A stretch of DNA of 64,000 nucleotides from NCBI GenBank assembly GCA_049115835.1, contig JAGDZN010000011.1:66541-130540 (forward strand). Reading direction: 5' to 3'. The DNA comes from Reichenbachiella sp. (GTDB lineage: Bacteria > Bacteroidota > Bacteroidia > Cytophagales > Cyclobacteriaceae). The notes beneath the pieces were generated by a model. It was not told the origin of the DNA. It worked only from the letters and a program-made list of their open reading frames with translations, and did no database searches. A program made the position numbers and the translations under genes. Positions 1,290-6,088 of this stretch are shown here, one piece after another. Each line of letters opens with the position of its first letter. Within the stretch, counting starts at the first letter, position 1.

Positions 1290-1323
1290 TTTGATTCCCC
1301 CCCCCCCCATTTTTTTATAATTG
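1290..1323 (+). promoter_or_regulatory. Putative Bacteroidota sigma70 promoter with a C12 homopolymer in the -33/-7 spacer
   Basis: TTTG at 1290-1293, 12 Cs at 1297-1308, TATAATTG at 1316-1323 (one mismatch to TAnnTTTG), ATG at 1350. Confidence 0.55.
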
Positions 1324-1349: not shown

Positions 1350-3098
1350 ATGACCAGCCTAAGAACATCGATACTTATTGTTATTGCCACACTACTATTT
1401 TCATCATGTGACAAAACGGATGAGGACTTGCTAATTAATAAAGAACCTGATATCACTATTGAATCTATTATCCCCAATGATGACAGTAATTTACTATCAA
1501 TATTAGCTAATTTCGGAAGCGTAGATTCAAACGCAAAAATGTTAGATTCAGGATTCGGCAACATTTCTCTAGACGAAGCTATCAAGGTAACAAACCCTTA
1601 TCGAAATCTCGAAAGATATTCGTTGCTCATCAAGAGCGATAATAATTCATTTGGTTTTGAAAACTTGGTGCTGCGGGAAATCGAAGGAGAAGTTTTGCCT
1701 TACATCATTAAGTTCGATCCAGATCTTCACTGGTTGTATCAAAATGAAGGTGTATTTGACATTACAACACTTACTGGAGAGCTCGCCATTCTAAATTTGG
1801 ATAGAGCCTTGCTTTTTGAAGCAAGTTACATAAATGGGCGTGGCTACAACATTCGTGACTATTTAATGAACAGTTCCAGTGGTCGTATTAATTGTGGAGG
1901 ATCTTCTGGAACTGGTGGAGGAAGCTCAGGTGGCCCATCTGGAGGAGGAGTTGGAAATACAGGAGGGACAGGAGGCTCTGGCAATACGGGCGGATCCACT
2001 GGCAACAATGGATCAACTTCGGGTTCTGGTGGTTCAAGTTGTGTGTGGGGTACTACAGCAACAGGAGGCATTTTCATAGACTGTCGTGAACAAAATATGG
2101 GATTGCATTTCTTTAAAACTCTGTGTGACCCATACGGATATGTAGATTTAAATGATTGTGCGGTGGGAGACTGCCCTATCGATCCAATTGGAATTCTACC
2201 TAGACAGCCAATCAATTTATCTGAGCTAATAAAAGCTACAAGAATAATCACCCTTACTCAATTAATCCAAGATGACCCATTTGCATTAATTGAAAATTGT
2301 GATCAGATAGAGCAGTGGCAAGAACTTGTGCAACATAATGTGCCCGGTACAGTTTTACAAAAGCTTGAATTCTTACAATCAGCCAATAATAGCGTATTTG
2401 GAGGAGATTGGAATGTGCAGAACATTAATGATGCCGAAGGTCCTGTTGTCAATATGGATTATTTCTCCGTACGAGTCACTCAATTGCCAAAAAACCCTGA
2501 TACTGGTCAAAGCTTCGCTCCTGACTCATTTTTTAACCACGTCAGAAAAAACCTTGATGATTTCCTTGAAGGAAATTCTACAGAATTCGGCTCATATAAT
2601 TCTGCTGAAGATGATTTATGGAAATCCAATGACTACCTTGGAGCCATAATGAGATTTGAAATTAAACCTGAGATTCTTGGAGGAACAATTCCTGCTTCAC
2701 AAGATGGTACTGTAATTTGCTCAGACAAGAACAATAAGAGCTGGAAATTCACAACACTAGAATCCCCAGATGACTGGAACCATCCGGTGAGTGGGCATAG
2801 AGAGTTTGGATTGGTTACGAATGCTGATGGTTCCTATACTTTTTATACCAGAGGTGTAGATCGTGTAGCTGAAGCATTTGATCAGTTTGCAGGAGATTTA
2901 CCTTTTGGTCAAACTGCTTTTGAAGGAGCTGATAAGCTTTGGACCACATTTCAGAATAATCTAGAATCTTATATCAATGCCCCAGGTAGAAATGGATTCG
3001 CTCAAATCGAAACTCCTAAAATTGATAGAACAGATTGGGATAAAATCGATTCTATCTTGAAAGGAGAAACTCCTGTTGCTGAAATAGGATGTGACTAA
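1350..3098 (+). CDS. Lipoprotein with Gly/Ser-rich linker and uncharacterised C-terminal domain (DUF1990-like motif)
   Basis: Lipobox LFSS-C; 48-aa G/S/T/N linker (nt 1896-2039); C-terminal HPVSGHREF...DGSYTFYTRGVDR motif. Confidence 0.75.
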   Translation: MTSLRTSILIVIATLLFSSCDKTDEDLLINKEPDITIESIIPNDDSNLLSILANFGSVDSNAKMLDSGFGNISLDEAIKVTNPYRNLERYSLLIKSDNNSFGFENLVLREIEGEVLPYIIKFDPDLHWLYQNEGVFDITTLTGELAILNLDRALLFEASYINGRGYNIRDYLMNSSSGRINCGGSSGTGGGSSGGPSGGGVGNTGGTGGSGNTGGSTGNNGSTSGSGGSSCVWGTTATGGIFIDCREQNMGLHFFKTLCDPYGYVDLNDCAVGDCPIDPIGILPRQPINLSELIKATRIITLTQLIQDDPFALIENCDQIEQWQELVQHNVPGTVLQKLEFLQSANNSVFGGDWNVQNINDAEGPVVNMDYFSVRVTQLPKNPDTGQSFAPDSFFNHVRKNLDDFLEGNSTEFGSYNSAEDDLWKSNDYLGAIMRFEIKPEILGGTIPASQDGTVICSDKNNKSWKFTTLESPDDWNHPVSGHREFGLVTNADGSYTFYTRGVDRVAEAFDQFAGDLPFGQTAFEGADKLWTTFQNNLESYINAPGRNGFAQIETPKIDRTDWDKIDSILKGETPVAEIGCD

Positions 3099-3507
3099 TT
3101 ATATGATCATGAAAGCATTTATTCGTTCGGTCGTATTGAGTATTATGATTTTGTCTGCACATATTCTAATGGGATTATTATATACCTGGATAGCTAATGT
3201 TGAATATGGAGGGTTTTATGGATTAATGGGAGGGCTATTATATTACTTGGTTTTCGCTTATTGGGCATACCTTCTGTTGTCATTGTTATTCGTTTCTTGG
3301 GTTAAAAATCATAATGGAAGAAAAGACAGGTACTTAAAGGCGACCTTGGTATTGGTTGTTGGATATTTCTTTTCCAGAATTCCAGATATTATTGATTCTG
3401 ATTTCTTTACTCATTTTTCTATATCAGGATTATTAATTTTTATAGCTCTAATACCCGTATTAGTAGAATGTGAGTTGTACTTGCATAAGTTAAATGATAG
3501 CAATTGA
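3091..3507 (+). CDS. Small multi-pass membrane protein, coupled to the upstream lipoprotein gene
   Basis: About four hydrophobic segments in 138 aa; GTG start overlaps the upstream stop, in-frame ATGs at 3103 and 3109. Confidence 0.75.
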   Translation: MTNYMIMKAFIRSVVLSIMILSAHILMGLLYTWIANVEYGGFYGLMGGLLYYLVFAYWAYLLLSLLFVSWVKNHNGRKDRYLKATLVLVVGYFFSRIPDIIDSDFFTHFSISGLLIFIALIPVLVECELYLHKLNDSN

Positions 3508-3722: not shown

Positions 3723-4760
3723 ATGGCTACACTTTTAAAAGTTACCACTCTTAGTCTCATTGCCTTAATCGGTGGATTTCATTTCACGTTATATGCTGAC
3801 ATCATCATAGAATATCAGGTCACCCCTCATCAGGATCAGCCTTTGGTAGATAAAAGCCTCATTCTGCCCGAAAGAATCATTATGAGTTTCAATGAGGACA
3901 ATGTCAGAATTCAAAAGGTGGGTCATCAACCTTACAGTTCCTTTGACCTCTATACCTTTGGCCACCGCTCTTTTTATAACTGTGTAGAATTCATGGGACA
4001 AAAGAAAGCCTTTAGGCATGATCCCGAATATTACAATATCACTTCAGTGAGTGATAGCACTTTCAAAGTGCTGAGTATACCCTGCAGTAAAGCTATTGGC
4101 TATATGGATGAGAAAAAAATCGAGATTTATTATACGGATATTTATGGTGCGAATTTTCATCCAAATGCAGACATTGATGGCATTGCACTTATGTATACCG
4201 TGGAGGATAAGGTTTTTGGCAAAATCACCTATCTCGCAACAAAAATCATGGTCGATTCGATCCCGAAAGAAATGTTTAGTAAAAATGAGTACGTCATTAC
4301 TAAAACAACTGAATTGGACGTTGGCACGGGCAAACTAAATAAAAAGTTTCCCGCTGTATCGCTGAAGAATCTTGAGGGTGAAAAGTTTAAATATGTTCCC
4401 GACACCACACAATTTACTGTAATTAACTTTTGGTTTGGAGGATGCAGACCCTGCATCATGGAAATACCCTACCTTAACACTTTGGTTAAACAACACAATA
4501 AACAGCCAGTTAATTTTATGGCAATTTCTTTGGACAAGCCAGACCAACTATCAAAGTTCCTGAACAATCATTCATTTTTATATGAACATTTCTCGGAAGG
4601 AAAGAATGCAGCCAAAAAACTTGGCATTCAGGCGTATCCTGCACATTTCATTATTGATCAGCATGGTAAGATTATTTACGAGAGTAGTGGTTATAACGCT
4701 CTATCAGTTTATGACCTTGCTTCAAAACTTGATAGTCTTTTGCTAACTTCAAATGACTGA
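3723..4760 (+). CDS. TlpA/ResA-family thioredoxin-like protein with additional N-terminal domain
   Basis: C-terminal VINFWFGGCRPCIMEIP (CxxC) and AYPAHFIID; N-terminal signal-like segment. Confidence 0.8.
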   Translation: MATLLKVTTLSLIALIGGFHFTLYADIIIEYQVTPHQDQPLVDKSLILPERIIMSFNEDNVRIQKVGHQPYSSFDLYTFGHRSFYNCVEFMGQKKAFRHDPEYYNITSVSDSTFKVLSIPCSKAIGYMDEKKIEIYYTDIYGANFHPNADIDGIALMYTVEDKVFGKITYLATKIMVDSIPKEMFSKNEYVITKTTELDVGTGKLNKKFPAVSLKNLEGEKFKYVPDTTQFTVINFWFGGCRPCIMEIPYLNTLVKQHNKQPVNFMAISLDKPDQLSKFLNNHSFLYEHFSEGKNAAKKLGIQAYPAHFIIDQHGKIIYESSGYNALSVYDLASKLDSLLLTSND

Positions 4761-4792: not shown

Positions 4793-6088
4793 ATGATTAA
4801 AACTGCCTTGTTTTATCCGTTGATTTGGGCACTATATCTCATTTCATCTGAGCTTTATGCTCAGAACACGTACACAGTCATTATCGATCGAGATTATCAG
4901 TTTCAGCACGATGCAGATAGTCTTTGGATTATGAGTTTTTTACCCAAAAGCATCACTAATCGTCAACGAGTGATCAATTACCGTTTTTCACCTGTGATTC
5001 CACCTATAGAAGATATTGAAAATAGTAGGTGCTTTCGTCTAGTTTTATTTGATGATGAGATCAAAAAGTCATACAGGTTTCATGCCGAATTTGACATTGA
5101 AATATTCGATTATGATTTGGCAGAAGCCCTCTACATCAAAGACGGATTAGACGATACATTGAACTTAAGCCAATACCTAGAGCCAGAAAGCTTTATTAAT
5201 AGTGATAGGAAAAAGTTTAAAAAGTTGGTGAGCACTTTTGATGATTCAGAAATCATCGCTGTGCGACAAATAATGGAGTACGTTCGAAAAAAAATCAATT
5301 ACAAAATTCAGCAATACGGCGACTTGGGTGCCAACAAATCTCTCGCCCTTCGCGAGGGAGATTGCTCGGAGTATTCTGACCTCATGGTCTCAATATGTCG
5401 AGCCAAAGGCATTCCTTCCAGAACAGCTATTGGCAAAGTGGCTCAAACGTCTATTAACCCAAATCATGCATGGGTTGAAGCTTACCTGAAAGGAATAGGT
5501 TGGGTGCCCTTTGACCCAACTGCTGTTGAATCCAGTGGGCTTGAAAGAATTGAAGAACTAACTGCACCTTACATATATTACTCTTTTGACAGAATTGATA
5601 AATACCTCGGATCTTTCACTGCAAATTCTTGGTATTACACCAATGGTACTACTGATGCGAGATAATTTGTTAAAGTAATACAGGATAAGATCCATATTTT
5701 TCAGGAAGCAGCAGAATTTTATAATTCTCATCAATATGATTCTGCCATTTATTTGCTCGACGAACTCATCACGTTTGATCTAGCCAATACCAAGTATATA
5801 ACTTTTAAAGGCATGGCTTTTGCCCGACAAGGAGAATTTGAAAGGGCACATAATTATTTTCAATTGGCCATTGCACAGGCCAAACATGGTATGCAAAAAA
5901 GAGACGTCTACTACTCATATGCTAACTACCATGCTCTAAACTGAAACAAAGAATATTGTCTTTCCTTTCTCAGGAAGTCCTTTGAATTAGGTTTTAGAAA
6001 CTTCGAGCATGTTAAAAGTGATGAAGATTTAGTGAGTGTTAGGGATTCAAAAGAATTTGAAGCTTTGTTGACAGAATTCGAAAATTAA
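4793..6088 (+). pseudogene. Transglutaminase-like protein with C-terminal TPR region, interrupted by in-frame TAA (5663-5665) and TGA (5942-5944)
   Basis: Catalytic triad motifs GDCSEYS, HAWVE, FDPT in 4793-5665; the same frame continues through TPR-like 5666-5941 and a TPR-end-type tail NKEYCLSFLRKSFELGFRNFEHVKSDEDLVSVRDSKEFEALL to TAA at 6086-6088. Confidence 0.75.

Follow-up and report, generated by a model that had tools for sequence, protein, structure and literature searches.

We describe a pair of adjacent genes in a stretch of 64,000 nucleotides (nt) from Reichenbachiella sp. (assembly GCA_049115835.1, contig JAGDZN010000011.1, positions 66,541 to 130,540; the whole stretch is hereafter called the window). 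The first gene encodes a lipoprotein of 582 amino acids (aa), and the second, which follows with essentially no gap, encodes a small membrane protein. We lean slightly towards the view that the two are a lipoprotein-tethered effector, presumably toxic, and its inner-membrane immunity protein, and that they belong to a large, undescribed and mainly Bacteroidota family. What leads us there is the combination of a tight pair in shifting genomic contexts, a partner that evolves fast, displaced 3′ ends of the first gene, a mosaic that involves the 3′ end and the partner, and a patchy distribution. An earlier reading of this DNA, which we call the original prediction, had proposed an effector and immunity layout of the kind found in polymorphic toxins. 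Much of that layout is present in the family, namely the tight pair, orphan fragments with membrane genes and the mosaic 3′ end, but the unrelated, interchangeable tips that such a layout would include were not found.

The gene pair

The features of the locus are given below, with positions counted from the first letter of the window and the basis of each in brackets.

1297 to 1308, forward strand: C12 homopolymer, a candidate phase-variation tract, 41 nt 5′ of the ATG (sequence read directly)
1350 to 3098, forward strand: lipoprotein gene, 582 aa, the proposed effector (open reading frame; no Pfam or NCBIfam family)
1350 to 1427, forward strand: signal peptide, lipobox LLFSS-C20 and the acidic, export-signal-like C-D-K-T-D-E-D (sequence)
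1455 to 1859, forward strand: N-terminal beta-rich domain, aa 36-170, fast-evolving (AlphaFold2, predicted local distance difference test (pLDDT) ~90)
1896 to 2039, forward strand: flexible Gly/Ser/Thr/Asn linker, aa 183-230, 48 aa, from Cys182 to Cys231 (composition; pLDDT <50)
2040 to 2219, forward strand: Cys-rich spacer, aa 231-290 (Cys231, 245, 259, 270 and 275), a low-confidence small beta module (AlphaFold2 and sequence)
2220 to 3095, forward strand: conserved C-terminal domain (C-domain), aa 291-582, with a final hairpin-helix ending at Cys581 (conservation, AlphaFold2 and Foldseek)
2781 to 2864, forward strand: most conserved segment, HPVSGHREFGLVTNADGSYTFYTRGVDR, aa 478-505, a proposed active or ligand-binding site (invariant columns)
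2865 to 2939, forward strand: hypervariable segment right after GVDR, aa 506-530, a candidate specificity loop (identity blocks)
3091 to 3507, forward strand: gene for a membrane protein with four transmembrane (TM) helices, 138 aa from the GTG at 3091, the proposed inner-membrane immunity protein (open reading frame (ORF) and hydropathy)

The lipoprotein begins with MTSLRTSILIVIATLLFSSC, a signal peptide followed by a lipobox with Cys20 (MTSLRTSILIVIATLLFSS-C20). An AlphaFold2 model built on a 58-sequence alignment has two confident domains, aa 36-170 and aa 290-582, with a disordered stretch between them (aa 176-278) and pLDDT values above 90 in the core of the C-domain. This agrees with the original prediction, which had read the protein as a lipoprotein with an N-terminal domain, a linker and a distinct C-terminal domain. 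The 48-aa Gly/Ser linker flanked by cysteines was also described correctly: it is made of G, S, T and N apart from one P and one V, and Cys182 and Cys231, which frame it, are followed by the four further cysteines of the spacer. The protein has ten cysteines in all (20, 182, 231, 245, 259, 270, 275, 317, 457 and 581). A linker of similar kind is found in most homologues, and the Cys-rich spacer is kept in the closest relatives only. No tandem repeats were detected in the linker DNA.

Relatives are labelled L (loci) and P (proteins) below, and the neighbourhood comparisons cover 82 distinct related loci. One observation on the linker comes from L003 and L085, two copies of the closest full-length homologue, which are otherwise identical and differ by a 57-nt in-frame indel (19 codons) within the Gly/Ser linker (L003 6280-6620, L085 4390-4790). 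This may be either a polymorphism in linker length or an assembly collapse of repetitive DNA.

Started from its GTG, the second gene overlaps the lipoprotein gene by 8 nt. The public gene call uses the ATG at 3109 instead, 10 nt past the lipoprotein stop, and gives a 132-aa product. Hydropathy places four hydrophobic helices in the protein, and the near-gapless, roughly four-helix membrane gene of 138 aa that had been claimed is what we see.

A fast-evolving membrane partner

We counted as a partner any ORF of 60-200 aa with at least two predicted membrane helices that lies within 60 nt of the lipoprotein stop. Such a gene stands behind the lipoprotein gene in 72 of the 82 loci, with a gap of -47 to +48 nt and a median product length of 140 aa; the small downstream gene that had been pointed out at this locus, here at -8 nt (GTG) or +10 nt (ATG), is a near-universal companion. 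Of the ten loci without such a gene, five encode large multidomain proteins from other phyla, one is at a contig end, one is unexplained, and in three a membrane ORF lies 67-144 nt away. The genes flanking the pair vary from locus to locus, and no other conserved neighbour was found in the 82 loci, where no gene recurs beyond 3-7 of them.

A homology search with the 138-aa partner retrieves only itself, so its relatives were located by position. Among these, the window partner is recognisably homologous only to the partners of L001, L003, L005, L007, L011 and L023, which are the closest relatives; its identity to the L001 partner is 30% (E 1e-11). Against PADLOC the partner gives only a weak match, to PDC-M18B (E 0.015). 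The loop between helices 3 and 4 carries a conserved acidic motif, (P/G)-D-I-I-D-x-D-F, which reads P-D-I-I-D-S-D-F-F in the window and which, by the positive-inside rule, would lie on the periplasmic side.

Sequence comparison indicates that the partner diverges much faster than the C-domain. Where C-domains are 55-70% identical, 63% of the partners are still detectably similar, at a mean identity of 35%, and where C-domain identity falls below ~45% no partner similarity is detectable. L074 and L076, with C-domains that are 90% identical, have partners that are only 36% identical. A single-linkage BLAST clustering of the partners without composition correction, which had linked 54 of 70, was discarded, as bias-corrected HMMER joins only the closest of them.

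The residues that differ between L074 and L076 are densest at aa 506-530, with others upstream and near the C-terminus. In a rank regression of partner similarity on four sub-regions of the C-domain, aa 506-545 carry a weight of 0.31 and aa 401-505 a weight of 0.27, while the final 37 residues carry little. The simple rank correlation of the hypervariable region with partner similarity is 0.36, no higher than that of neighbouring regions. On these sequence comparisons aa 506-530 are a candidate partner-recognition or specificity loop.

Displaced cassettes and exchange of the 3′ end

A search with the C-domain profile over six-frame translations of the related loci revealed 17 extra C-domain fragments in 10 loci (L001, L005, L007, L008, L021, L047, L060, L069, L074 and L076). 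Every one of the 17 lies downstream of the main gene and on the same strand. The 5′ truncation points vary, and 14 of the fragments reach to within two positions of the C-domain end. Behind 13 of them, at -10 to +26 nt, there is an ORF of 86-164 aa with 3-5 TM helices. L005 has four fragments in a row; three of them each have a small ORF behind, and two of these ORFs have 3-5 membrane helices. Additional partner-like genes are found in L011 and L074. By sequence, the identity between an orphan and its main gene tracks that between the second and the first membrane gene, as follows.

L007: orphan and main gene 87% identical; second and first membrane gene 74%
L021: orphan and main gene 74%; second and first membrane gene 51%
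L047: orphan and main gene 66%; no detectable similarity between the membrane genes
L005: orphan and main gene 40%; no detectable similarity between the membrane genes
L074: orphan and main gene 31%; no detectable similarity between the membrane genes

An exchange can be traced in L074 and L076, two contigs from different metagenomes. Their DNA is 97-100% identical over the first ~700 nt of the gene region under comparison and 63-88% identical over the final ~400 nt. Identity drops to ~50% in the partner gene and is back at 95-100% in the orphan behind it.

Judged by these identities, the two loci differ by a bounded exchange of the 3′ end of the gene together with the partner. The exchanged unit, on the same evidence, is the last third of one homologous domain plus its partner, and not a set of unrelated toxin domains.

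Small membrane genes without any C-domain fragment also occur downstream of the pair, in L074 (3602-4788, including three tandem paralogues), L011 (7626-8442) and L044 (7773-8228). These runs may be orphan-immunity arrays.

Size, distribution and conservation of the family

A word-indexed search found 92 homologues of the lipoprotein. An exhaustive HMMER search with the C-terminal 353 aa gave 1,535 clusters at 50% identity, and for 307 of these the E-value is below 1e-30. Nearly all matches are proteins of 500-650 aa with the homology at the extreme C-terminus. The named sources are Cyclobacteriaceae, Reichenbachiella, Echinicola, Pontibacter, Rufibacter, Elizabethkingia, Empedobacter, Sphingobacterium and Chitinophagaceae, and the annotation of named members is always ‘hypothetical protein’. 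A genome scan adds Flavobacteriaceae, Saprospiraceae, Balneola and a few non-Bacteroidota. In Elizabethkingia anophelis the clusters hold just 1-4 members, which marks the genes as accessory and strain-variable. One 7.4-kb contig binned with a metagenome-assembled genome of Neobacillus sp., a Firmicute (L049), carries a typical Bacteroidota-type lipoprotein of the family, identical to P0196, and is probably bin contamination.

Neither the lipoprotein nor the partner matched a family in Pfam, NCBIfam or PHROG. The lipoprotein had no PADLOC match and drew only linker-driven noise from the PDB sequences, and the family profile found nothing meaningful there (best E 0.69, NDUFB10). The family was absent from the plasmid and phage collections searched with tblastn, and a literature search found no published description of it. 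The original prediction had stated that no catalytic toxin motif is recognisable; we likewise matched no known toxin motif or family.

Conservation is concentrated in the C-domain. Its invariant residues (W323, N368, D370, P380, R399, W465, F467, T469, H478, V480, G482, R484, F486, D504, R505 and W531) persist across Bacteroidota, Gemmatimonadota, Proteobacteria, Cyanobacteria and Acidobacteriota. The motif that had been pointed out from the window alone, HPVSGHREF...DGSYTFYTRGVDR, is indeed there at aa 478-505 and turns out to be the most conserved part of the whole family. The blocks at aa 478-507 have a mean pairwise identity of 0.63-0.68. The block directly behind them, aa 508-522, is the least conserved of the C-domain, with a mean pairwise identity of 0.12, and it overlaps a loop modelled with low confidence (pLDDT 55 at aa 511-520).

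The N-domain, by sequence comparison, is homologous in most members yet much more diverged than the C-domain. It has 35 direct phmmer matches and 102 of 209 after iteration, and a single BLAST cluster takes 93 of the 156 full-length proteins (60%). Two more clusters join the main one by hhalign (95% probability), and the Elizabethkingia type remains unlinked. Of 62 pairs with C-domains 55-70% identical, only 7 have N-regions with detectable similarity. With the C-domain conserved and the N-domain fast-evolving, the layout is the reverse of a conserved carrier with a variable tip, and this part of the original prediction, a conserved N-terminal trafficking domain with a swappable C-terminal tip, did not hold.

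The search for homologues that share the N-domain and carry a swapped C-domain, which had been suggested, recovered only the full standard architecture. We found no case of the window N-domain on another C-domain, with N-domain searches that are of limited reach: a profile search with a 16-sequence N-domain alignment failed to retrieve even its input proteins, and is thus no sign of absence. A scan for the N-domain DNA pattern found two metagenome loci. One is L085, with the full standard architecture; the other, L086, is a 2-kb contig in which no ORF of at least 80 aa covers the match, so that its architecture is unreadable. P0091 was considered as a swapped tip and rejected, as this copy is truncated and ends where the C-domain begins.

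A predicted helix-grip fold with an invariant polar cluster

The C-domain consists of a short helical lead-in, a core (~aa 360-545) and the C-terminal hairpin-helix. In a Foldseek search against the PDB the core matches Bet v 1, PR-10, PYR-PYL (PYR1) and CoxG, with a best E of 1e-3, a probability of ~1.0 and a TM-score by target of ~0.6. The top 50 matches are nearly all Bet v 1-like (E 1e-3 to 1e-2, probability 0.93-1.0, TM-score by target 0.36-0.65), and two uncharacterised bacterial proteins, 7tmu and 3otl, are also among the top ones. The predicted secondary structure, with a strand, short helices, a six-strand meander and a long C-terminal helix (aa 521-543), fits a helix-grip. The model thus indicates a core of Bet v 1/SRPBCC-like helix-grip fold, at marginal significance.

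Two adjacent strands of this model, E480-490 and E496-506, carry H478, S481, R484, D504 and R505. As the invariant H478-x-V-x-G-x-R-x-F and Y-T-R-G-V-D504-R505 sit on neighbouring strands, they would form a common face, which suggests a binding or catalytic site. The viral fold library gave no match. The N-domain modelled alone (pLDDT 87) has no significant fold match in the PDB (best E 0.15); the weak, non-significant ones include the lipid-transfer half-barrels Osh6, Ups1, VioE and EPDR1.

The original prediction had seen in the C-terminal motif a resemblance to DUF1990 (UPF0548, Pfam PF09348). We reject this homology: the Pfam model was matched in hmmscan neither by the protein at E<=1 nor by 22 diverse family members at E<=10. 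The two may at most share a fold class, DUF1990 being one that we take to be Bet v 1-like.

The fold brings up an explanation without any antagonism. The protein could be a physiological surface lipoprotein that captures a hydrophobic molecule (a lipid, a sterol-like compound, a pigment, a quinone or a signal) in an SRPBCC-like pocket carried on the flexible tether, with the membrane partner as its receiver, anchor or assembly factor. Folds of the Bet v 1, START and PYR type do bind ligands, and the C-domain matches them; its strict conservation across phyla resembles a biochemical function more than the tip of an arms race; the faint N-domain matches are to lipid-transfer proteins; and nutrient-binding lipoproteins share the surface export signal discussed below. 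On the other hand, neither a transporter nor a metabolic gene is a conserved neighbour in the 82 loci, the partner changes too quickly to be part of a conserved machine, and orphan arrays with membrane genes and a mosaic of 3′ end and partner would have no obvious reason. The distribution is also patchy and strain-specific. We regard this explanation as unlikely.

Export signal and poly-C tracts

A lipobox-like Cys is found in 124 of 159 near-full-length members, and many of the others are N-terminally truncated gene calls. In these 124 members the residues after the Cys follow (E/Q)-K-(D/E)-(D/E): K is commonest at +3, and D or E makes up 64% at +4 and 49% at +5, against a background of 12%. 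The experimentally defined lipoprotein export signal C-X-K-(D/E)2 sends Bacteroidota lipoproteins to the cell surface, and the position of the residues mattered in the published assay (PMC5080379). The same signal is used by the BSAP lipoprotein toxins (Bacteroidales secreted antimicrobial proteins, BSAPs; PMC12853789). The family-wide sequence consensus therefore fits display on the surface or on vesicles. The window protein itself is an imperfect match, as its acidic C-D-K-T-D-E-D is shifted by one residue and K-(D/E)2 is interrupted by T. Of the surface or vesicle delivery that had been proposed, then, the family consensus speaks in favour and the motif of the window does not quite conform.

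We also looked for a C-terminal sorting domain of the type IX secretion system (T9SS). The lipoprotein had no NCBIfam or Pfam match to Por_Secre_tail or to the type B C-terminal domain; its C-terminus is the conserved domain itself, ending in Cys.

The C12 tract is the sole run of C or G of at least 8 in the window, which has a G+C content of 37%. It lies upstream of the only start codon, and there is no in-frame start 5′ of 1350. It stands between TTTG (1290-1293) and TATAATTG (1316-1323), which are separated by a spacer of 22 nt. The Bacteroidota promoter consensus is TTTG (-33) and TAnnTTTG (-7), so the two elements are, by sequence, candidate -33 and -7 elements around C12. With the tract inside a likely promoter spacer, its length would alter promoter spacing. 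Tracts of this kind recur at the 5′ end of two relatives, L070 (C10, 5113-5122) and L009 (C8, 4806-4813), which makes three independent lineages; in both relatives the tract lies within the sequence that encodes the signal peptide. With the C10 of its assembly L070 is out of frame, and a full pre-lipoprotein is regained with C9 or C12; the C8 assembled for L009 also breaks the frame, which C9 or C6 would mend. Of the upstream C12 switch in the original prediction, the tract is confirmed as unique in the window and has counterparts in two relatives, and any effect on expression would be through the spacing just described.

A poly-C tract here and in two relatives is also what one might expect of a phase-variable lipoprotein that serves as surface antigen, adhesin or phage decoy and is kept variable by predators, phages or hosts. 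The downstream gene would then be just co-transcribed, with an unrelated or accessory role. The fast evolution of the N-domain, the variable linker length and the family surface export signal are all compatible with this. But the most exposed, distal domain is the most conserved one, the opposite of a target of antigenic variation, and neither phage nor defence families were matched. Furthermore, each 3′ fragment is coupled with a membrane gene of its own, which points to a functional pair and argues against an incidental downstream gene. We give this explanation little credence and think it very unlikely.

Architectures outside Bacteroidota

Outside Bacteroidota the C-domain is found in proteins of 760-1,697 aa, together with Peptidase_S8, with Amidase_2, trypsin and Peptidase_C70, or with Amidase_3 and OmpA. 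These fusion loci come from Proteobacteria, Acidobacteriota and Cyanobacteria (L083 3694-8787, L080 3778-6816, L082 3958-6717, L078 19-2301 and L075 3127-6720), and their C70 module is an AvrRpt2-like protease. The fusion proteins are without the terminal Cys pair. Their neighbours include another S8 peptidase, an amidase or peptidoglycan-binding protein, an LCAT-like lipase, a WD40 protein and a sigma-54 activator, and no secretion system was recognisable near them. The domain composition suggests that the C-domain works in the cell envelope beside degradative enzymes, and does not reveal its chemistry. The large fusion proteins may be a separate effector class.

These fusions bear on a further explanation, in which the pair serves non-lethal recognition of self or kin, or adhesion: the lipoprotein would touch or be transferred to neighbours and the inner-membrane partner would read ‘self’, with diversification in the service of discrimination and not of killing. 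IdsD and IdsE of Proteus mirabilis, in which a membrane protein binds an identity determinant, are the model for such a pair. The signatures expected would be the same, that is, a variable partner, cassette exchange and strain specificity, and the membrane-embedded partner, the predicted surface exposure and the candidate phase-variable poly-C tracts are in keeping with it. Against it, the polar cluster is conserved and the domain is found fused to amidases and proteases, both of which suggest an activity more than a mere label, and no transfer machinery is encoded nearby. Displaced cassettes that keep their partner genes are, moreover, best known from toxin systems (PMC3482391). We consider recognition or adhesion of this kind quite unlikely.

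Proposed mechanism and its weaknesses

We return to the effector and immunity reading and to how such a pair might work. The product of the first gene would be exported, lipidated and flipped to the surface by way of its acidic export signal, and would probably also enter outer-membrane vesicles. There it would present a membrane-proximal, fast-evolving beta domain, a long Gly/Ser tether and a distal, conserved domain of ~290 aa. Display, or recognition of the target, may be the role of the tether and the variable N-domain. The harmful part would be the C-domain with its invariant polar cluster (N368, D370, R399, H478, S481, R484, D504 and R505), and its target a hydrophobic or lipid-linked component at the inner membrane, in the envelope of neighbours. 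Two considerations shape this choice. A polytopic immunity protein suggests, by analogy, an effector that acts at the cytoplasmic membrane from the periplasmic side. A modelled helix-grip fold with a charged invariant cluster suggests a substrate that is lipid-linked or amphipathic.

The product of the second gene would shield the producer while the lipoprotein transits the periplasm, and also against attack by siblings, by binding the hypervariable loop beside the conserved site. New specificities would arise when recombination replaces the 3′ third of the first gene together with the second gene, and the old 3′ end and the old partner would remain downstream as orphan cassettes. In some lineages poly-C switching would be added, with the tract in the promoter in the case of the window and within the signal-peptide coding sequence in L070 and L009. 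We infer the toxicity, the target, the delivery route, the direct binding of the two proteins, the specificity loop and the effect of C12 on expression. The full picture is that of a surface- or vesicle-displayed, tethered SRPBCC-fold enzyme that attacks the envelope of neighbours, as part of a new weapon superfamily with polytopic immunity proteins, cassette replacement and poly-C switching. We offer it tentatively, as a possibility that is somewhat less probable than its opposite.

Several points weigh against the effector and immunity reading. For every member of the family, toxicity, binding and competition rest on inference, and no described toxin motif or family was matched in Pfam, NCBIfam or the PDB sequences. 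No antibacterial toxin with a fold like that of Bet v 1 is known to us, and domains of this fold usually bind small hydrophobic ligands. The C-domain is one conserved family without any unrelated tips found, unlike the classical polymorphic toxins. There is no evident route across the outer membrane of a target cell. The strongest evidence for conflict comes from relatives: no orphan C-domain fragment, extra partner gene or paralogue was found elsewhere in the 64-kb window. The large non-Bacteroidota fusion proteins have no small membrane partner. The values for L074 and L076, 90% identity of C-domains with 36% identity of partners, mean that specificity either rests on a very small patch or does without a close match of the partner. 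The correlation between loop and partner is modest (coefficient 0.31, R2 0.26, no phylogenetic correction). Finally, surface antigens and adhesins show phase variation and fast evolution of an exposed domain just as typically.

Genes and signals around the pair

The window starts (3-1004) inside an ORF that, from reading the sequence, we take to be glutamate-synthase-small-subunit-like (pyridine nucleotide-disulfide oxidoreductase). A terminator-like hairpin, CCCTCGGG-N13-CCCGAGGG-T6, lies at 1189-1223, ~185 nt past the stop of this ORF; the terminator scan missed it because its loop is longer than 8 nt. The scan of the window for sigma-70 promoters and terminators is uninformative for a Bacteroidota genome.

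Downstream of the pair there is a redoxin gene (3723-4760) for a protein of 345 aa with a C-terminal AhpC/TSA-redoxin (TlpA/ResA-like) domain and an uncharacterised N-terminal part of ~200 aa, and 3′ of it a gene for a transglutaminase-core protein (4793-5665). The redoxin gene stands behind the pair in just three of the 82 loci, the window and L003 among them, and is also seen in L085. It could be relevant to an exported protein rich in Cys, or it could be mere inherited synteny.

Significance

The known antagonism systems of Bacteroidota, such as the effectors of type VI secretion systems (T6SS), the BSAPs, the bacteroidetocins and BcpT, come almost entirely from gut Bacteroidales, and coverage is poor for the Cytophagia, Flavobacteriia and Sphingobacteriia of sea and soil. 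The family described here, with more than 1,500 clusters at 50% identity and without a Pfam entry or functional annotation, has the genomic hallmarks of an effector-immunity conflict. Should our reading be correct, it would provide a new toxin fold, the first of its kind, and a new class of membrane immunity proteins. It would also mean lipoprotein or vesicle delivery that is independent of secretion systems (no T6SS or T9SS) across Cytophagia, Flavobacteriia, Sphingobacteriia and Saprospiria, and would give a marker for strain-level competition among environmental Bacteroidota. Cultivable carriers are at hand in Reichenbachiella faecimaris, Kordia algicida and Mangrovivirga halotolerans, and in Flavobacterium, Pedobacter and Sphingobacterium species. 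If the effector reading is wrong, the surface biology of Bacteroidota would still include something widespread and unexplained here, a conserved SRPBCC domain on a tether that has an invariant charged site and comes with an obligatory membrane partner.

Comparison with known systems

The C-domain core superposes on Bet v 1, PR-10, PYR1 and CoxG (TM-score ~0.5-0.65), as expected of the Bet v 1-like/SRPBCC superfamily. It differs in that the Foldseek E is only ~1e-3 and no Pfam member of the superfamily is matched by sequence. It also has additional elements at both its N- and its C-terminus, a terminal Cys pair (C317 and C581), and an invariant charged cluster that is undescribed for those families.

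Small inner-membrane immunity proteins of 3-5 helices are encoded beside the toxin gene in colicin A/Cai, Tse4/Tsi4 and TspA/TsaI, and an adjacent polytopic immunity gene is typical for toxins that work from the periplasmic side, at or in the cytoplasmic membrane. Our partner resembles the immunity proteins of pore-forming colicins and of membrane-targeting effectors of T6SS and of the type VII secretion system in kind only: there is no homology, and the C-domain is an alpha/beta helix-grip with a polar cluster and not a helical pore-forming bundle.

SitA and SitI of Myxococcus (PMC5562445) are similar in several respects: they combine polymorphic, strain-discriminating, lipid-anchored outer-membrane toxins with an adjacent immunity gene, toxin status being only proposed for our lipoprotein. 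SitA reaches its recipients through outer-membrane exchange (PMC5562445). By sequence, the pair described here and SitA/SitI are unrelated. The SitA tips are nucleases that act in the cytoplasm and are countered by soluble immunity proteins, and their delivery requires TraA and TraB, which to our knowledge are not found in Bacteroidota.

The BSAPs are, like the members of our family, modular Bacteroidota lipoproteins with an acidic export signal, to which the motif of the window protein does not fully conform. BSAPs are displayed on the surface and in vesicles and are used against related bacteria (PMC12853789), and we propose display and antagonism of this kind here too. In contrast to them, the family has no MACPF domain (PF01823) by Pfam search. 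BSAPs have variable receptor-binding C-domains, whereas here the C-domain is conserved and comes with a dedicated partner gene. The BSAP producer is protected by a resistant receptor allele rather than by a dedicated membrane immunity gene.

Classical polymorphic toxins combine a conserved N-terminal trafficking region with interchangeable, mutually unrelated C-terminal toxin domains (PMC3482391). The pairs CdiA-CT/CdiI of contact-dependent growth inhibition, Rhs and MafB share with our family the small gene directly downstream that co-varies with the 3′ end of the large gene, the downstream arrays of 5′-truncated 3′ fragments with small genes of their own (here in relatives of the window), and a mosaic limited to the 3′ end and the partner, in strain-variable and unrelated genomic contexts. 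They differ in that the tips of our family are variants of one conserved domain, of which only the last third is exchanged. No filamentous, RHS/YD, PAAR, TPS (two-partner secretion), LXG or MafB-N module was matched here; the carrier is a lipoprotein instead, and the presumed immunity proteins are polytopic and match no Pfam Imm family.

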